DNA of 64,000 nucleotides from Haloferula sp. (GCA_044372775.1 JBIPNO010000006.1:60207-124206), one strand, 5' to 3'; shown: positions 10,720-18,317, counted from the stretch's first letter. Notes: generated by a model not told the origin, from the sequence alone. A program made the numbers and translations.

Positions 10720-10968
10720 CAGTTTTGAGGCAGTGATCGGTTTCAATATGTGGAATCCCCAACGGCCTTGCAAATATTTTAAACTTTACGGCAGAAAAAT
10801 GAGGTAAAATGCCATTTCGAGCGTTTTTGATGGAGGTGAACCCGATAAAGCCAAGGATTTGGGGAAGCGCTACGGGCGCAGAAGGTCAAGAACGCCGCCG
10901 GAAGAGGCGCTCGATCGAGCCTTTCGGGCGAGATCGTCGGATCGAAAGGGAGGGGCACCCGGTGGCCT

Positions 10969-11271
10969 TTAAGCCGACGGGGAGAGAGCTTCGGCGATCT
11001 GCCGCCATTCCTCGTCCAGGCTCAGGTCCCGGGCTGGAACCGGCTGGCGAGCCCGGGAATACCAGTAGGCGGCATTCTCCAAGTCGCCCTCCTCGCGATG
11101 CAGCCAGGCGTGGATCCACGCGCCGGCGGGATCCGGAAGGTCCTGGCAGGCATCGTGGGCCCCATGCCAGCGGCCGGCCAGGGCCAGCCAGAGCACCCGC
11201 TGCTCCGCGGTCAATGCGGCGGGCGGGTTGGCGTCGTGGCGGGCGGATAGGGCAAGGGCGGCGGCATCCAT
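10969..11271 (-). CDS. Conserved small hypothetical protein
   Basis: 100 aa with WHGAH...GAWIHAWLHREEGDLENAAYWY, a motif recalled from a widespread uncharacterised family. Confidence 0.75.
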   Translation of the reverse strand: MDAAALALSARHDANPPAALTAEQRVLWLALAGRWHGAHDACQDLPDPAGAWIHAWLHREEGDLENAAYWYSRARQPVPARDLSLDEEWRQIAEALSPSA

Positions 11272-11324
11272 GGGCGAGAAACGACTGGCAAAGCCCGGGG
11301 CTTCCGTCTTTCTTCATTCCTGTC

Positions 11325-12134
11325 ATGAAAAGAAGCCCCCTGTTCCTTCTCTCCGTCCTGTCGCTGCTTCCTCCTCTTCCGGCTGGCGAGCTTCCCCAAC
11401 TCAAAGAAAACCCCTGGATCGGCTACTATGTCGGCTACGAGCGGCGGAACTACCATTTCATGGTCAGCAGCTCCGGCGAATGCCTGCTCTCTCCGATCAG
11501 CACGAAGGGTTCCCCCCTGAGCAGCCGTCTCTCCATCAAGATCCGTCCGGTGGTCGAGGATGTCCTGCCGGGCGGCCAGATCGTCGCCAAGGCGGCGGTC
11601 GACGACGGGTGGGAAGCGGTCACACCGGCCTCCGTCGATCCGGAATCCGTGGTTTACCGCGGAACCGTGACGGGCGGGGCGCGCTTCGAGGTGAAACTTG
11701 AGTTCGACGGCGACCAGATCAGCGCGGGCGGCCGCCTTTTGGAAAAGGGAACTTTGGCCAACCCGCGGTTCATGATCCGCATCCAGGTTCCGGATGTTTA
11801 CTATCACGAGAACGATGCCGGAAAGAAGGCGGAGAAGGCCAAGAAGGACCGGATTGATCTCGTCCGGACCGATGGCAAGAAGCTGAAGCTCGATCTGATG
11901 ACCCCGCTCGACGCGGAGTCCGCGGAGTTCAATGGTCCGGGAGTCCAGCAGGCCCGCGTCGATATCGAAGGCTACCGGGGGCTTCGGCTGGACCTCGATG
12001 CCGGCAAGGACGCCTTCTTTGAATTCTGGAACAAGGGCGAGGTCGCGCTGGTCGAGGGCTTCACCCTGGGTTGGCGGCCGGATCCGGTGAAAGACCCCGA
12101 AGGCAAGGGGCGGGTCGTGCTGAAAGCCCGCTGA
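11325..12134 (+). CDS. Secreted hypothetical protein
   Basis: ATG 11325 gives MKRSPLFLLSVLSLLPPLPAGE (signal-peptide-like) and a normal-composition 269-aa body; the upstream part of track ORF 10809 is Arg/Pro-rich noise. Confidence 0.7.
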   Translation: MKRSPLFLLSVLSLLPPLPAGELPQLKENPWIGYYVGYERRNYHFMVSSSGECLLSPISTKGSPLSSRLSIKIRPVVEDVLPGGQIVAKAAVDDGWEAVTPASVDPESVVYRGTVTGGARFEVKLEFDGDQISAGGRLLEKGTLANPRFMIRIQVPDVYYHENDAGKKAEKAKKDRIDLVRTDGKKLKLDLMTPLDAESAEFNGPGVQQARVDIEGYRGLRLDLDAGKDAFFEFWNKGEVALVEGFTLGWRPDPVKDPEGKGRVVLKAR

Positions 12135-12157
12135 AAACCGCGGGTTGAGGGGTTTCA

Positions 12158-12193
12158 GTACACCGGAGAACACTTGGTGGACTCCCAGTACAC
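12158..12193 (-). promoter_or_regulatory. Distal set of 10-bp-periodic putative MraZ boxes, inverted orientation
   Basis: gtacac 12158, gaacac 12168, gtacac 12188 (GTGTAC/GTGTTC on the minus strand); mirrors the proximal boxes. Confidence 0.45.
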
Positions 12194-12376
12194 TTCATGG
12201 TAGGATTCTGCCCGGAAATCGCCCGAGGCTTCATTTTCAGGGGACTTCTCCTGCGAAACGCAGGCGAAATTTATTTAAAATTCTGAATTGAAGAGGCTTT
12301 CTGGATTCGGTTTTTGATCTTTAAGTCTCTGAAAAACAAGGGATTAAAATTTTGTTACGGTAGTCCTGAATTTAAA

Positions 12377-12414
12377 TTGACGATTTCGGTGTACTTTGGT
12401 GTAGTTCGAGGCAC
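12377..12414 (+). promoter_or_regulatory. Putative dcw promoter (-35 TTGACG, -10 TGTAGT, 17-nt spacer) overlapped by 10-bp-periodic MraZ-type boxes
   Basis: ttgacg 12377-12382, tgtagt 12400-12405; ggtgtac 12388, ggtgtag 12398, gaggcac 12408. MraZ is known to bind three direct repeats with 10-nt period at its own promoter. Confidence 0.55.
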
Positions 12415-12436
12415 TTCAGCGGCTTGACCGCATCCG

Positions 12437-12889
12437 ATGTCCTCCTCCACCAAAGTTCACGAGAGTCACTTCGACTACAAGATGGACCCGAAATTCCGGG
12501 TTTCCATCCCTGTCGAATGGCGTCCCGAGACGGAGGAGACCGCGATCCGGCTCCAGCTCTCGAAGGAGCACGATCTGCCGGTGATCAAGGTTTTCACGGA
12601 GGAAGAGTTCGACCTGAAGTTCGAGCAGGTGGCCAACAGCAACCTGACCCCCGCCAAGAAGCAGCAGATCGTCGGTCACCTCCGCATGATGTCGAAGAAG
12701 GCCTTCGTCAGCGGCCAAGGCAAACTGACCGTCCCGAAGGATTGGAGCGAGCAAGTCGGCATCCAGTCGGAAGGCCAGGTCATCCTCGCCGGCCGCGGAC
12801 CGTTCTACATGCTCTGCACCCCGGACACTTTCGAGCGCATCAAGCAGATCGAGCTCGGCATGGACGACGGCGACCTCGGCGTCCTCTAA
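12437..12889 (+). CDS. mraZ: Transcriptional regulator MraZ
   Basis: YKMDPKFRVSIPVEWR and VSGQGKLTVPKDW SpoVT/AbrB-like repeats; first gene of the dcw cluster. Confidence 0.85.
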   Translation: MSSSTKVHESHFDYKMDPKFRVSIPVEWRPETEETAIRLQLSKEHDLPVIKVFTEEEFDLKFEQVANSNLTPAKKQQIVGHLRMMSKKAFVSGQGKLTVPKDWSEQVGIQSEGQVILAGRGPFYMLCTPDTFERIKQIELGMDDGDLGVL

Positions 12890-13019
12890 CCAAAGATTTC
12901 ACCCGCCCACACCTGATAGAAGCGACAACATGCTGTTCGCCCAACCAACTCCTGCATCCGCACAAACCGGCTCCGCGACACCCATCGCGGCGTTCGGCAA
13001 GGTGTGGGAGTTGGGCTGC

Positions 13020-13572
13020 ATTTTCCAATCCGAACGGACCGGCGCACTCGGGACAGCGCTCCGCTCCGTTCACTTCAAGACGGCTGTCCGTCCTGCATTC
13101 CATGGCTGGTTGGCAGGACGGCGGCCGGAGAATTTCCTGGCTGGGCGGAAGGGGTCACTCGGGACAGTACCCCTTTCGCTTTCAAACCCGGTGGTCCGTG
13201 CAGCTTCTGGCTGGTTGTCTGGACGGACCCCGGGACATTTTCCATGCGAACGGACCGGCGCACTCGGGACAGCGCTCCTTTCCGTTCATTCCCAAACGGC
13301 TGTCCGACCTGCGTTCCATGGCTGGTTGGCAGGGCGGCGGCCGCTGAATTTCCTGGCTGGGCGGATGGGGTTACTCGGGACAGTACCCCTTTCGCTTCTT
13401 AACTCGGTGGTCCGTGCGGCTTCTGGCTGGTTGTCCGCACGGCCCCCCGAAAATTTTCCATGCGAACGGACCGGAGCACTCGGGACAGCGCTCCGCTCCG
13501 TTCATTCCCAAACGACCGTCCGACCTGCATTCCATGGCTGGTTGGCAGGGCGGCGGTCGTTGGATTTTTTCA
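13020..13572 (+). repeat. Five-unit tandem array (A-B-A-B-A; 111/105 nt, 216-nt period) of double-hairpin elements; candidate structured RNA repeat
   Basis: Core (C/T)ACTCGGGACAG at 13045, 13156, 13261, 13372, 13477; TGGCTGGTTG in every second hairpin; long inverted repeats with compensatory changes between copies. Confidence 0.9.
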
Positions 13573-14534
13573 GTGCCCAGGCGGCACCCGGCGAGTCGTC
13601 CGGCTACCATCTCTCCGTGCTCCCTTGCGAGGTGAGCGAGTGGATGCGCGCGGGCGAGGGGATGGACCTGATCGACGGCACGCTCGGCGGCGGCGGGCAC
13701 AGCGAGGCCTTTCTGAAAGCCGGCGCGCGGGTGCTCGGCGTCGACCGCGACCCGGAAGCGCTGGCCTTCGCGTCGCAGCGGCTGGCCGCCTTCGGCGAGC
13801 GCTTCCGCACCTGGCAGGGGAATTTCGCAGATCTCCGGGACATCCCCGAGGTCCGGGGGGAAAAGGGGGCCGATGGCTTGCTTTTGGACCTCGGGGTCTC
13901 GTCCCGGCAACTCGACGCCGCGGAACGGGGATTCTCGTTCCGCGGCGCCGGCCCTCTCGACATGCGGATGGGCCCGGCTTGTCCCTTCGATGCGGCCGAG
14001 GTGGTCAACACCTGGCCGGAAGAAGAACTCATCCGCATCTTCCGCGAACTCGGCGAGGAGCCGCGCGCCCGCCGGATCGCCGCGGCGATCGTGAAGCGCC
14101 GCGCGACCCGCGCCTTCGACACCACCACCGATCTCGCGGACTGCATTGAAAAGACCATCGGCCGCACCGGCCGCATCCACCCGGCGACGAAAGCCTTCCA
14201 GGCGATCCGCATGGTGGTGAACGACGAGCTCGGTTCGCTGGAGCGCGCCTTGGAGGCATCGGTCGATGTCCTCAAGCCCGGCGGCCGCCTGTTAGTGATT
14301 ACTTTCCACAGCCTCGAGGACCGGATGGTGAAGCGCTTCATGCAGCACCGCTCGAAGCCTTTCCTCGACCAACCCGGCTGGCCCGAACCGCGGCCGAATC
14401 CCGACTGGTGCTTCCGGCTGCCCGTTCGAAAAGCGATCGCCGCGAGCGACGCAGAGATCCGAGTCAACCCGCGGGCCCGCAGTGCGAAACTGCGGGTCGC
14501 CGAGCTTCTGGACCCCACCGTTTCACCCCGATGA
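13560..14534 (+). CDS. rsmH: 16S rRNA m4C1402 methyltransferase RsmH (start uncertain: TTG 13560, or ATG 12930 with a 210-aa repeat extension)
   Basis: YHLSVLPCEV, IDGTLGGGGHS, GVDRDPEA, LLDLGVSSRQLD, GFSFRGAGPLDMRM, HPATKAFQAIRMVVNDEL, ITFHSLEDRMVK, NPRARSAKLRVAE. Confidence 0.95.
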   Translation: MDFFSAQAAPGESSGYHLSVLPCEVSEWMRAGEGMDLIDGTLGGGGHSEAFLKAGARVLGVDRDPEALAFASQRLAAFGERFRTWQGNFADLRDIPEVRGEKGADGLLLDLGVSSRQLDAAERGFSFRGAGPLDMRMGPACPFDAAEVVNTWPEEELIRIFRELGEEPRARRIAAAIVKRRATRAFDTTTDLADCIEKTIGRTGRIHPATKAFQAIRMVVNDELGSLERALEASVDVLKPGGRLLVITFHSLEDRMVKRFMQHRSKPFLDQPGWPEPRPNPDWCFRLPVRKAIAASDAEIRVNPRARSAKLRVAELLDPTVSPR

Positions 14535-14875
14535 ACCGCCTCCGCTCCGAACCGAAGACCCACTCGTCCGTCTTCATCACGCTGATCCTCGCCGCACTGG
14601 TGGTGGTGACCGGCGGCATCATGCACGCGGTTTACAAGAACTCGCAGGTCCGCACCGCCCGCCTCATCGACCAGGCCGAGCAGCGGATCGACCAGACCCG
14701 CGTCAGGATCCGCATGATCGAGGTCAACACCGACGAGCTGCTCGACCGCTTCGACATGCGGGAGCGACTCCATGAAAACGGCACCCAAATGATTGAAGTG
14801 ACCCCGGCCGACATCGAGGAGATCAAGGCCGCCCGCCCCGAGCCCGAAGTGGCTTCCCTCCGCGATTCGACATGA
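14531..14875 (+). CDS. ftsL: Cell division protein FtsL-like (bitopic, coiled coil)
   Basis: Located between rsmH and ftsI with ATGA overlaps at both ends; short cytoplasmic N-terminus, one TM helix, then a coiled coil. Call rests on position and topology. Confidence 0.65.
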   Translation: MNRLRSEPKTHSSVFITLILAALVVVTGGIMHAVYKNSQVRTARLIDQAEQRIDQTRVRIRMIEVNTDELLDRFDMRERLHENGTQMIEVTPADIEEIKAARPEPEVASLRDST

Positions 14876-16818
14876 CCTCCCGCGCCTTCCAAACCCGCTG
14901 CCTCCTGCTGTGCTCGGTCCTGGTGACCGGGCTCAGTTTGCTTTCGGTCCGCCTGATCCAGATCCAGGCATGGGACCGCAAGCACTACGCCGACAAGGCG
15001 CGGCTGACCTTCGAGCGGCGGGAGATCCTGACCGGCTTGCGCGGCAAGATCGTGGACCGCAACGAGGAGGTGCTGGCCAAGAGCATGCCGGTCGCGACGA
15101 TCCACGTGAACGTCAACCATTTGACCGATCCGCTGGTGATTTCCTATCCGCTGGCTCATGAACGGGTGAGTTTCGTCCCGGGCTGGGAAGCGCTCGATCC
15201 CCAGGCGCGGAAACGCCGCGTCCTCGCGGAGCGCAGCGTGATCCTCAAGGAGTTTGAGGAGATGCCGGCCGATGCGATCTTCGAGAAAGCGCTCGCCCAG
15301 GCGGTGAACATCCTCGCCCGGCCGCTGGGACTCCGGCGCGAAGTGATGAGGGAGCGGATCAAGAAAGCGATCCGCGGCGGTGTCCAGGAGTTCGCCCTGG
15401 TGAAAGACCTCAAGGCTGATGCGGCGGAAGGAGTCCGTGAACTGATCGCCAAGCATTGGCTCGAAGGATTCTTCCTGCGCGAGTCGTCCAAGCGCTGGTA
15501 TCCCTCGCCGGATCTCGCGACCCACGTCATCGGCTACACCGGCGAAGTGGAAGGCCGCGACGAAGATGGCGGGAGGATTTTCCGCCAGGTCGGCAAGTTC
15601 GGCATCGAGGCGACGGTGGAAGAATACCTCGCCGGCAGCGACGGCTGGCAAGAGCACCGCCGCGCGCCGAACGGTGCCCGCATCCCCGGCGACTCGTCCA
15701 GCCTCAAGCCGCCCCGCGCCGGGCTGAACGTCCAGCTCACGCTCGACATGGGCGTCCAGGCGATCATCGAGGAAGAGCTCGACGCCGGGCTGAAAGAGTT
15801 CGAGAGCCAGCGTGGCTGCGTGATCGTCATGGATCCGAAGACCGGCGAAATCCTCGGGATGGCCAGCCGGCCGGACTTCAACCTCAACCTGCTCGAGGAC
15901 CTCGACAAGTCGGCGGCGAACTTCGCGCTGCAGGCGAACTACGAGCCGGGTAGTACTATCAAGATCGTCGCCGCCGCCGGCGCGATCAACGAACGCCTCG
16001 TCAGCCCGCAGACCTCCATCTTCTGCCACAACGGCCTCTATCAAGTGGGCAAGGTGCGGGTGCCCGATCATCATCCTTACGGCTACCTCACGGTCGAAGG
16101 CGTGCTTGCCAAGTCCAGCAACATCGGGGCCTACAAGCTCGGCCTCCAGCTCGGCTCCAAGCGCTTCTACGACTACATGGACCAGTGGGGATTCGGCGTG
16201 AAGACTGGCATCCAGCTCAGCGGCGAGAGCCGCGGGGTGGTACGTGACACCGGCAACGCGGTCGATTTCTCGCGCGCCACCTACGGCTACGCGCTCGCCG
16301 TGACGCCGCTCCAGATGGCCTCCGCCTACTGCGTGATCGCCGGCGACGGCAAGCTGCGCAAGCCGCACATCGTCAAGTCGGTGATCGCCAACGACGGCAC
16401 CGTGGTCGAACGCTTCGAGCCTGAAATCGTCCGCAGCGTCCTCCGCCCGGAAGCCGCCAAGGCGATGCGCGGGGCGCTGGAGAAGGTGGTCGACATCAAG
16501 GGCACCGCGCTGCTTGCCAAGGTCCCCGGCTACCGCGCCGGCGGCAAGACCGGCACCGCCATCCGCATCAAGGACGGCCGCTACCAGCCCGGCCACTACA
16601 CCGTGTCCTTCGCCGGCATGCTGCCCGCCCAGGATCCCGCCTTCGTCTGCATCGTGGTGATCGACGATCCGCTGACCAACAAGGTGAAGCGCTACGGCGG
16701 CACCATCGCCGCGCCGGTCTTCGGCAAGATCGGCGCGCGGCTCGCCGCCCACATGAATCTCACTCCCACCGAACCGGTGGAAGACAAGGACAAGCTCGCC
16801 GGAACCCTGGAACCGTGA
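14872..16818 (+). CDS. ftsI: Class B penicillin-binding protein (FtsI/PBP3)
   Basis: RGKIVDRNEEVLA, YEPGSTIK (SxxK), KSSNIG (SxN), GGKTGTA (KTG). Confidence 0.9.
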   Translation: MTSRAFQTRCLLLCSVLVTGLSLLSVRLIQIQAWDRKHYADKARLTFERREILTGLRGKIVDRNEEVLAKSMPVATIHVNVNHLTDPLVISYPLAHERVSFVPGWEALDPQARKRRVLAERSVILKEFEEMPADAIFEKALAQAVNILARPLGLRREVMRERIKKAIRGGVQEFALVKDLKADAAEGVRELIAKHWLEGFFLRESSKRWYPSPDLATHVIGYTGEVEGRDEDGGRIFRQVGKFGIEATVEEYLAGSDGWQEHRRAPNGARIPGDSSSLKPPRAGLNVQLTLDMGVQAIIEEELDAGLKEFESQRGCVIVMDPKTGEILGMASRPDFNLNLLEDLDKSAANFALQANYEPGSTIKIVAAAGAINERLVSPQTSIFCHNGLYQVGKVRVPDHHPYGYLTVEGVLAKSSNIGAYKLGLQLGSKRFYDYMDQWGFGVKTGIQLSGESRGVVRDTGNAVDFSRATYGYALAVTPLQMASAYCVIAGDGKLRKPHIVKSVIANDGTVVERFEPEIVRSVLRPEAAKAMRGALEKVVDIKGTALLAKVPGYRAGGKTGTAIRIKDGRYQPGHYTVSFAGMLPAQDPAFVCIVVIDDPLTNKVKRYGGTIAAPVFGKIGARLAAHMNLTPTEPVEDKDKLAGTLEP

Positions 16819-18317
16819 TTTTACGCGATCTCATCGCCTCTTTAAACCGCCCGCTTGCCGTGGGCCCGCTCGACGTCGAGATCCTCGCCGTCACGGCGGA
16901 CTCGCGCCTGGTCGAACCCGGCACCGCCTTCGTGGCGATCCGCGGCGACGACCGCGACGGCCGGATGTTCATCCCGATGGCCCTGGAAAACGGAGCCTCC
17001 GTGATCGTTTCCGACAGCGCCGCCGAGACCGGGCATCCGGAGGACGTGCCCTACATCCAGGTCGGCGATGTCCGCCACGCGCTCGCCGCCTTGGCCCGTG
17101 CCCTCGCCGGCGAGCCGTCGAAAAAGCTCAAGCTGGCCGGCGTCACCGGCACCAACGGCAAGACCACCACCGCGTTCCTGCTCCATCACCTGATGAAGCG
17201 CGTCTGGCACCGCGCCGGCCTGCTCGGCACCGTGCTGGTCGACGATGGCGAGGAGTCCAAGCCCACCACCTTCACCACGCCCGGCCCGGTCGAACTCAAC
17301 CGCCTGCTGGCCCGCATGGCCGACCACGGCTGCCGCGGCGCGGCGATGGAAGTGTCGTCCCACGGCATCGACCAGAAGCGGATCGACGGCATCGCCTTCG
17401 ACGTCGCGATCTTCACCAATCTCACCCAGGACCACCTCGACTACCACGGCACGCTCGACGCTTATGCCGCGACCAAGTTCTCGTGGTTCGAGTCGCTTGC
17501 CGCCGATCCGCTCGGCAAGAAGCCGGTCGCCGTGGTGAATCTCGACGACGGCCATGGCGAGAAGCTGGTGGCGCTGCTCGGTGGCGGCCTGCCGATCCTC
17601 CGATACGGCTTCAACGTCCACTGCGACTTCCGCGCGAACAACTTCAAGCAGAACGCCCGCGGCATGGAGTTCGAACTCACCGCCAAGGGGAAGAACTATC
17701 TGGTCCGCGCGCCCTTGATCGGCCGCTTCAACGTTTACAATTTGCTCGCCGCGCTCGCCGCCGCCAGCGCGCTGAAGATCCCGCTGCGCGATGCCGTGGC
17801 CGCGCTGGCCGATGCCCCGCAGGTCCCCGGCCGGATGGAACTCTGCGGCGCCCGCGATGGCGTCACGGTGTTCGTCGACTACGCCCACACTCCGGACGCC
17901 CTGGAAAATGTCTGCCGCACGCTCAAGGAGCTGAAGCCCAACCGCCTCATCACCGTCTTCGGCTGCGGCGGCGACCGCGACAAGACCAAGCGCCCGCTGA
18001 TGGGCAAGGCGGCATCCGAGCTGAGCGACGTTTGCATCCTGACCTCCGACAACCCCCGTAGCGAGGAACCCGAAGCCATTCTCAAGGACATCGAGGCCGG
18101 CATGACCGGTGCGCGATACAAGACGGTGGTCGACCGCACCGAAGCGATCCGCATCGCGATCCACGCCGCCAGCAAGGGTGACATCGTGCTGATCGCCGGC
18201 AAGGGCCACGAAACCTACCAGCAGTTCGCCGACCGCACCATCGACTTCGACGACCGCCGCGAAGCCCGCCGCGCCCTCGACGAACGCCCCGAAGAACCGC
18301 AACGCAACAAGCGATGA
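16815..18317 (+). CDS. murE: UDP-MurNAc-tripeptide synthetase MurE
   Basis: GVTGTNGKTTT, MEVSSHG, FTNLTQDHLDYH, VDYAHTPDALE, VFGCGGDRD, SDNPRSE (DNPR suggests meso-DAP), LIAGKGHETYQ. Confidence 0.95.
   Translation: MILRDLIASLNRPLAVGPLDVEILAVTADSRLVEPGTAFVAIRGDDRDGRMFIPMALENGASVIVSDSAAETGHPEDVPYIQVGDVRHALAALARALAGEPSKKLKLAGVTGTNGKTTTAFLLHHLMKRVWHRAGLLGTVLVDDGEESKPTTFTTPGPVELNRLLARMADHGCRGAAMEVSSHGIDQKRIDGIAFDVAIFTNLTQDHLDYHGTLDAYAATKFSWFESLAADPLGKKPVAVVNLDDGHGEKLVALLGGGLPILRYGFNVHCDFRANNFKQNARGMEFELTAKGKNYLVRAPLIGRFNVYNLLAALAAASALKIPLRDAVAALADAPQVPGRMELCGARDGVTVFVDYAHTPDALENVCRTLKELKPNRLITVFGCGGDRDKTKRPLMGKAASELSDVCILTSDNPRSEEPEAILKDIEAGMTGARYKTVVDRTEAIRIAIHAASKGDIVLIAGKGHETYQQFADRTIDFDDRREARRALDERPEEPQRNKR

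Follow-up and report, generated by a model that had tools for sequence, protein, structure and literature searches.

The DNA analysed here, called the window throughout, is a 64,000-nt stretch from Haloferula sp. (GCA_044372775.1, JBIPNO010000006.1:60207-124206) in which an array of tandem hairpin units lies at the junction between a divergent mraZ-like gene and the methyltransferase core of rsmH. The mraZ-like gene (12437..12889, plus strand) encodes 150 amino acids, of which residues 10-136 match NCBIfam NF001477 at E 2.5e-8, below the curated cut-off; in Pfam the MraZ family appears only at E 0.15 and nothing matches at E 0.01. A gene of this kind is found upstream of the array in all related loci that reach that far, and in the metagenome set it evolves faster than RsmH, with 25-53% identity versus 64-79%. 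Further upstream lies an ORF of 441 amino acids (10809-12134) that matches no Pfam family; conservation in related loci is limited to the C-terminal ~250-290 residues, and the first 150, rich in Arg and Pro, give the impression of an ORF called too long in GC-rich DNA. On the other side of the array, the RsmH core (13605..14534, plus strand) is identified by PF01795 at E 6e-98 and by TIGR00006 over ORF residues 226-525. It is followed on the same strand by an ftsL-like gene (14531..14875), whose ATG overlaps the rsmH stop codon (ATGA, 14531-14534) and whose own stop codon overlaps the start of ftsI by 4 nt (ATGA, 14872-14875); ftsI and murE, both identified by Pfam, overlap by 4 nt according to their ORF coordinates, with murE starting at a GTG at 16815 (16815-18317). 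The same 4-nt overlaps are called in two related loci (L134 and L136). This arrangement suggests that the chain from the extended rsmH ORF described below through ftsL-like, ftsI and murE is translationally coupled.

The array occupies positions 13020-13572 of the plus strand and consists of five units of alternating type with a 111/105-nt layout, A1 (13020-13130), B1 (13131-13235), A2 (13236-13346), B2 (13347-13451) and A3 (13452-13572); A and B units are homologous along their whole length and abut directly. Tandem Repeats Finder describes the region as 2.5 copies of a 216-nt period (89% matches, score 872), with a sub-period of ~105 nt over 13019-13567. The sequence ACTCGGGACAG occurs exactly five times (13046, 13157, 13262, 13373 and 13478) and is absent from the rest of the 64 kb, a copy number reached in 0 of 100 shuffles, and TGGCTGGTTG likewise has exactly five copies in the window (13103, 13208, 13319, 13424 and 13535), all inside the array. 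These counts, the repeat analysis and the folds confirm the five-unit array of double hairpins that an earlier note had read from the sequence, and the unit starts and the stem differences between A and B quoted there are indeed present. The array is also, as had been held, not a CRISPR, given that its units abut and that no unique spacers separate near-identical repeats. An assembly artefact, which the earlier note had allowed for, is ruled out, since at least 20 independent lake or wastewater metagenome runs carry about half or more of the array 31-mers (more than 90% in four runs) and an independent MAG (locus L002) carries a near-identical five-unit array.

Folding gives a pair of hairpins in each unit, with energies of -46 to -59 kcal/mol and z-scores of -1.7 to -5.7, and in the five window units the loops bear invariant motifs, CUCGGGACAG in hairpin 1 and UGGCUGGUUG in hairpin 2. 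In unit A1, hairpin 1 (13032..13071, plus strand) has a 17-position stem and a CGGGAC hexaloop closed by C-G and U-A; its counterparts in B1, A2, B2 and A3 fold at 13143-13181, 13248-13287, 13359-13397 and 13464-13503 of the same strand, the stem closing the hexaloop having 13-17 positions among the window units. Hairpin 2 of A1 (13081..13127, plus strand) has a stem of 6+9 bp with a 1-nt bulge on the 5' side and a 16-nt loop that includes UGGCUGGUUG, and with the corresponding plus-strand hairpins of the other units (13187-13234, 13297-13343, 13404-13450 and 13513-13559) the range is 14-16 bp, always with the 1-nt 5' bulge, and a loop of 15-16 nt containing the same motif. The CGGGAC hexaloop is present in all five window units and in nearly all aligned copies of hairpin 1, and a linker of the type UUUCC(U/A)GGCUG forms a third conserved single-stranded motif.

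The stems, for their part, change in sequence while remaining paired. Both compensatory changes that had been reported within the window are present, CGGCTG/CGGCCG of A1 and A2 becoming CGACCG/CGGTCG in A3 and GTGCAG/CTGGAC of B1 becoming GTGCGG/CCGCAC in B2, and hairpin-1 stems form a series in which pairing is kept (GGGGT/ACCCC, GAGGC/GCCTC, AGGAT/ATCCT, AGCGG/CCGCT, AGAGAG/CTCTCT). A joint alignment of A and B units allowed RNAalifold to recover the structure in part only, because the stems of the two types lie one column apart, and pairs were therefore counted in four separate gapless, register-homogeneous alignments, which hold ~110 distinct units from ~30 loci, a number that overstates the independent events since the units of one genome are partly homogenised. 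For hairpin 1, 88.9% of the cells are paired in the bulged register (46 distinct rows; 45-56% when slid), with 14 of 16 pairs changed on both sides, and 80.1% in the unbulged register (58 distinct rows; 33-48% when slid), with 16 of 17 pairs so changed. For hairpin 2 the figures are 84.5% in the B/C type (71 distinct rows; 34-48% when slid; 12 of 14 pairs changed on both sides) and 95.4% in the A type (33 distinct rows; 26-68% when slid; 6 of 15). The observed share of paired cells or covariation score was reached in 0 of 500 shuffles in all four alignments, which had been sorted beforehand, hairpin 1 by stem register and hairpin 2 by the type of loop and by looking at the folds, and are to that extent biased towards structure. 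As to homogenisation, a comparison of the arrays of the window, L009 with L003, L005 and L010 found that units of one genome are sometimes closer to each other than orthologous units are, at 0.98 for units 3 and 5 of L009 and L003 versus 0.74-0.90 between genomes; on these sequences this indicates gene conversion or recent re-duplication by one A+B pair (216 nt).

The covariation of a sense-strand structured RNA is thus real, with compensatory change in both stems. The earlier claim that G-U wobbles favour folding of the plus strand is sound overall (247 G:U versus 97 A:C in the stems) and fails for hairpin 1 of the A type, which has no strand bias (54 versus 61) and in which a conserved A.C mismatch, three pairs down from the loop, occupies the position of the bulged C found in the B type; in A-type units the minus strand folds equally well. 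The GTCC of hairpin 2, formerly called invariant, varies in the wider family (GCCT, GCGC and other forms) and is not conserved across lineages, and hairpin 2 itself supplies the compensating changes, for which reason the proposed alternative pairing with the GGAC of loop 1 was rejected. The same patterns bear on whether the palindromes act in DNA, as an operator array or cruciform for MraZ or another DNA-binding protein. The adjoining mraZ-like gene, the 105/111-bp period, 105 bp being ~10 helical turns, and repeated TGGN motifs would suit such an element; compensatory changes in the stems and the sense-strand excess of G:T point instead to a single-stranded fold, and the array sits downstream of mraZ in a transcribed and translated region. 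Known MraZ boxes are located upstream, in the promoter. We regard a DNA-level role as highly improbable.

Similar arrays occur at the same position in thirty-odd related Luteolibacter/Haloferula-like loci, with 1 to ~7 units; the closest named relatives are Luteolibacter and Haloferula (order Verrucomicrobiales). In an exact search for the two motifs in one genome per species, 14 stretches were found, of which all those extending into a flanking gene adjoin the mraZ-like gene or rsmH; by the exact pattern there is one array locus in the complete chromosome of Luteolibacter sp. Populi (NZ_CP161812). A looser scan of metagenomes added 19 real arrays, all adjoining the mraZ-like gene or rsmH, while ~100 single matches with neither mraZ nor rsmH nearby were discarded as chance. 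Two covariance models, R1 for hairpin 2 and R2 for hairpin 1, match only the array in the 64-kb window, R1 exactly at the five hairpins; across 281 kb of sequence from related loci and controls R1 has 79 matches, all of them inside mraZ-rsmH arrays. A weak hairpin-2 match on the minus strand inside ftsI (16519-16569; 20 bits, E 0.003) is probably a chance GC-rich hairpin. More distant lineages have 1-3 units, in which GGGACA is what is left of loop 1 and loop 2 retains UGGCUGGUU. Individual arrays show local peculiarities: in L016 (212-726) several loop motifs are degenerate, the usual MLF start is missing and the rsmH frame is open after an early stop, so that the array looks to be decaying, and units 2-3 of L074, a metagenome contig, are separated by a 168-nt spacing with an in-frame QFQFQFQF insertion, apparently a hexanucleotide microsatellite. 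Among orthologues only the copy number varies, and the site is always the mraZ-rsmH junction.

Searches of Rfam yielded no match to the array: with Rfam 15 and E-values up to 10, window positions 12000-14500 gave four chance-level matches (E 1.8-6.4), none of them bacterial cis-regulatory, and at the gathering threshold four homologous loci gave one tRNA elsewhere and nothing for the array. A scan for tRNA and tmRNA found none. One rsmH-linked RNA is already catalogued there, the mraW RNA motif upstream of mraW/rsmH in Actinobacteria, which is likewise a candidate cis-regulatory RNA; it does not match the array even at E up to 10, and it differs in phylum, in architecture and in its position with respect to the ORF. 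Literature searches combining RsmH or mraZ with Verrucomicrobia or Luteolibacter returned nothing. The array is a genuine, locus-specific structured RNA, and the family to which it belongs has been described neither in Rfam nor in the searchable literature.

The confinement to one locus also speaks to the view, entertained in the earlier note, that the array is a BIME-like mobile palindrome. Dispersed copies, the check proposed there, are absent from the window, from the 281 kb of related loci and, for the exact motif, from one complete Luteolibacter genome, and this reading is rejected on the grounds of a single locus without dispersed copies in the sequence examined. REP/BIME elements do resemble the array as imperfect palindromes lying between or within operon genes that may affect mRNA stability; REPs, however, lie outside genes and number in the hundreds, whereas the array is translated and restricted to one locus, and its pattern of conserved loops and variable stems is the reverse of theirs. 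Closer in one respect are the Rickettsia palindromic elements, in-frame palindromic repeats of protein-coding genes (reviewed in PMC10969869), which form hairpins, preserve the frame of the host gene and are translated as an extra peptide. They are mobile and dispersed over many genes, while the array is a tandem structure at one orthologous locus with purifying selection on its loops and pairing. A selfish in-frame palindromic repeat of this kind (RPE- or MITE-like), which landed in rsmH, expanded in tandem and was tolerated, would fit the palindromic, in-frame units, the disordered peptide, the partial homogenisation and a copy number of 1 to 7, but each genome has a single orthologous locus and no dispersed copies, the loops are essentially unchanged where the dS of the core exceeds 1.5, the array changes less at synonymous sites than the core does, and the stems are compensated. 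We accordingly give a selfish origin of this type very little credence.

The rsmH frame is open from an ATG at 12930, 40 nt past the stop codon of the mraZ-like gene, across the array and as far as 14534, which defines an extended rsmH ORF of 534 amino acids (12930..14534, plus strand) that begins MLFAQPTP and comprises a leader, the array and the RsmH core. From the mraZ-like gene to the core, this frame contains no stop codon in 12 complete genome loci, versus 24-43 in each other frame, and it is open from the start codon in all 13 metagenome loci examined, the start of L016 differing from MLF. Short database RsmH calls of 296-297 amino acids were rejected as a sign of an interrupted frame, the upstream frame being open in all three loci with such calls (L137, L138 and L139). 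The distances from one loop 2 to the next are multiples of three in 81 of 81 cases, with 11 distinct lengths from 105 to 219, and the sole departure from the frame is a -1/+1 pair inside the last unit of L004 and L074. At least 140 residues precede the core in 87 of the 120 listed database homologues, 71 of these 87 beginning M[LWQ][FS], and the start MLF(A/T)xPT is conserved. The spacer ahead of the conserved start codon (12890..12929, plus strand) is C/A-rich and G-poor and has no Shine-Dalgarno-like motif; in an alignment of 25 loci the ATG is preceded by a CACCCACCCACACC-type sequence, and the 30-58 nt before it are C/A-rich and G-poor and look like a Rho-loading or S1-type leader. The sister lineage L134 (2963-3000) differs in having a canonical Shine-Dalgarno motif, AAGGAG, 8 nt before the ATG. 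In 6 of 19 loci the stretch from the last loop 2 to the core has no ATG, GTG or TTG, and where such a downstream start exists it lies mostly in the 3' arm of the last hairpin. The open frame, the spacings in multiples of three, the conserved ATG and the missing downstream starts argue that translation from the upstream ATG is under selection.

As far as can be judged from the sequence, then, the array belongs to an N-terminal extension of rsmH that is translated, in a frame that is kept open in every complete locus, and not to a spacer. The earlier placement of the array in the dcw operon is borne out in that it lies at the operon head; the attribution to an mraZ-rsmH spacer is not, since the ORF is continuous with rsmH. 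A practical consequence concerns annotation: RsmH start sites are inconsistently assigned in public Luteolibacter and Haloferula genomes and MAGs, with annotated proteins ranging from 296 to ~590 amino acids and starting inside the array or the core (the inconsistently sized ones include P0008, P0015, P0017, P0024, P0025 and P0027).

Translation of the array raises the question of whether its product is what selection maintains. The extension could provide RsmH with a basic, disordered tail of ~36-residue repeats that helps to bind pre-30S particles or rRNA, the hairpins being secondary, for instance as stabilisers; a frame that is always open, indels that are all multiples of three and a conserved start would follow from this. 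By the Nei-Gojobori method, dN/dS is 0.35-0.92 in the array versus 0.06-0.21 in the RsmH core. Changes in the array are spread near-equally over the codon positions (11/11/11, 33/33/41 and 69/63/67), whereas the core has a strong third-position excess, and array dN is ~1.7-3 times that of the core and array dS ~1/4 to 3/4 of it, depending on the pair. Since the dN/dS of the array stays under 1 and its changes lean modestly towards third positions in several pairs, some protein-level selection on the extension is possible. A search of 1.84 billion representatives found the extension only on RsmH, plus two spurious repeat proteins, which is a further point for a tail with a function of its own. 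The pI of ~11.8 would be another, but all three DNA frames are equally basic (pI 11.3-11.9); the charge therefore follows from base composition and was rejected as a sign of peptide function. AlphaFold, given a 59-sequence alignment, predicts residues 1-221 with a pLDDT of 25-39 and no secondary structure, compared with ~85-98 over most of the RsmH core, and neither Pfam nor NCBIfam has a family for the extension; together with the dN/dS values, these results led to the rejection of a folded protein repeat domain.

The frame also changes within units. In ~33 of the 87 extended homologues one unit, usually the first, encodes GSGQHA instead of ALGTA from identical nucleotides, TCGGGACAG, read in another frame, ~10 residues being replaced. 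The cause is a one-base shift before loop 1 that is compensated before loop 2 (in the last unit of L004 and L074, in L022 and L088, and in the ~33 database proteins), so that GGGACA is read as SGQ and not as LGT, with loop 2 always back in frame; the shift is fixed in a large subclade in which the nucleotide motif is kept. The loops are invariant even at synonymous sites where the choice is free (CTC GGG ACA; GGC TGG TTG). This synonymous-site constraint and the stem covariation are left unexplained by a function of the protein, which we consider unlikely to be the primary role of the extension. Comparisons at this level suggest that the encoded peptide is weakly constrained, selection being mainly on the RNA, in its pairing, loops and synonymous sites.

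Among metatranscriptome contigs, the mraZ-like gene, the leader, the array and rsmH appear at similar depths, and one contig spans the mraZ-like gene into unit 1; the evidence for transcription is weak, since it consists of contigs that may include DNA. A scan for promoters and terminators found no such site within the array, whose hairpins lack the U-tract of intrinsic terminators and are followed, 3-5 nt after the stems, only by UUUU(C). An RNA that is structured and transcribed with its operon might also act away from it, the array releasing one or more stable ORF-internal RNAs from the dcw mRNA to serve in trans as a multivalent sponge for a protein or a small RNA. In E. coli, ORF-internal, decay-generated non-coding RNAs likewise place structured RNA within genes of this operon, with stable stem-loops and a lowered rate of synonymous change. 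Those fragments come from mraZ, ftsL, ftsI and murE, not from rsmH, and share no sequence similarity with the array, which differs from them in its tandem multi-module layout, its invariant loops and its location in an added 5' extension of rsmH; a separate RNA is here only hypothetical. The reduced dS and the very stable terminal stem-loops would be in keeping with such a sponge, as would the GGA at positions 3-5 of the CGGGAC hexaloop, repeated 3-7 times as in CsrA-type sites. CsrB/RsmZ sponges and CsrA sites similarly have several hairpins with GGA in the apical loop, although the array lies inside an ORF, is no independent sRNA and has a second, unrelated invariant motif, UGGCUGGUU. The loop context agrees only partly with A(N)GGA or CAGGAUG, most units having C-G-GGA-C and divergent lineages, with AAUGGGACA and AAAGGGACA, fitting better. 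In the contigs, the array is no deeper than the flanking mRNA and shows no processing, as far as contigs in which DNA may be present can tell, and a role in trans leaves the requirement for an open frame unexplained. A sponge is thus, in our judgement, distinctly unlikely.

The reading that we prefer, and on which our confidence is evenly balanced, is that the array is a family-specific structured RNA within the translated extension of rsmH, read through by ribosomes, that gates expression of rsmH and the dcw genes, with the encoded basic, disordered peptide largely a passenger. As rsmH has no conserved start after the array, ribosomes making RsmH would have to initiate at the upstream AUG and open 2-14 stable hairpins on the way, and through the 4-nt overlaps of rsmH, ftsL, ftsI and murE the same ribosome flux would also feed the downstream division genes, so that the array probably gates rsmH together with the translationally coupled ftsL-ftsI-murE. 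Docking sites for a putative trans-acting factor would be provided by GGGACA, UGGCUGGUU and the linker UUUCC(U/A)GGCUG; candidates are an RNA-binding protein, possibly RsmH itself or a binder of GGA loops, or a small RNA. Multivalent binding of such a factor may slow or block the transit of ribosomes or alter mRNA stability; alternatively, the gate might simply be the energy that ribosomes must spend to open so many hairpins (-46 to -59 kcal/mol per unit). Either way, the output of RsmH and the dcw genes would be set relative to that of MraZ. The earlier proposal of a multivalent protein- or ligand-binding cis-element therefore holds as regards a structured RNA in cis at a single locus, and a platform for multivalent binding is the best functional guess.

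A more specific form of gating can be envisaged, in which RsmH or the m4C1402 state of the ribosome controls the synthesis of RsmH and of FtsL, FtsI and MurE by translated feedback through the invariant loops. Autoregulation of translation by binding to its own mRNA is known for the ErmC rRNA methyltransferase, and the two mRNAs are alike in that both encode an rRNA methyltransferase and carry a structured element, binding by RsmH being hypothetical. By one route, RsmH would bind the hairpins of its own mRNA. The array loops, compared by eye with 16S rRNA near C1402 or h45, presumably share with it only the hexamer GGCUGG and otherwise bear no resemblance. By another route, the in-frame UUG that every hairpin-2 loop displays could serve as a non-AUG start, used more when C1402 is unmethylated; in E. 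coli, loss of RsmH raises non-AUG initiation (PMC2831307). We consider feedback of this kind very unlikely, but if true it would link ribosome maturation to cell division.

The array would represent a new family of structured RNA, made of tandem covarying hairpins that are also read by the ribosome. Selection at the level of the RNA and selection at the level of the frame are superimposed in it and can be cleanly separated, which makes it a natural test case for the interplay of ribosome, structure and factor inside ORFs. The array stands at the head of the operon for division and the cell wall, flanked by MraZ and RsmH, which act antagonistically, and it may therefore reveal how a group of Verrucomicrobia adjust rRNA methylation and the dosage of division genes.
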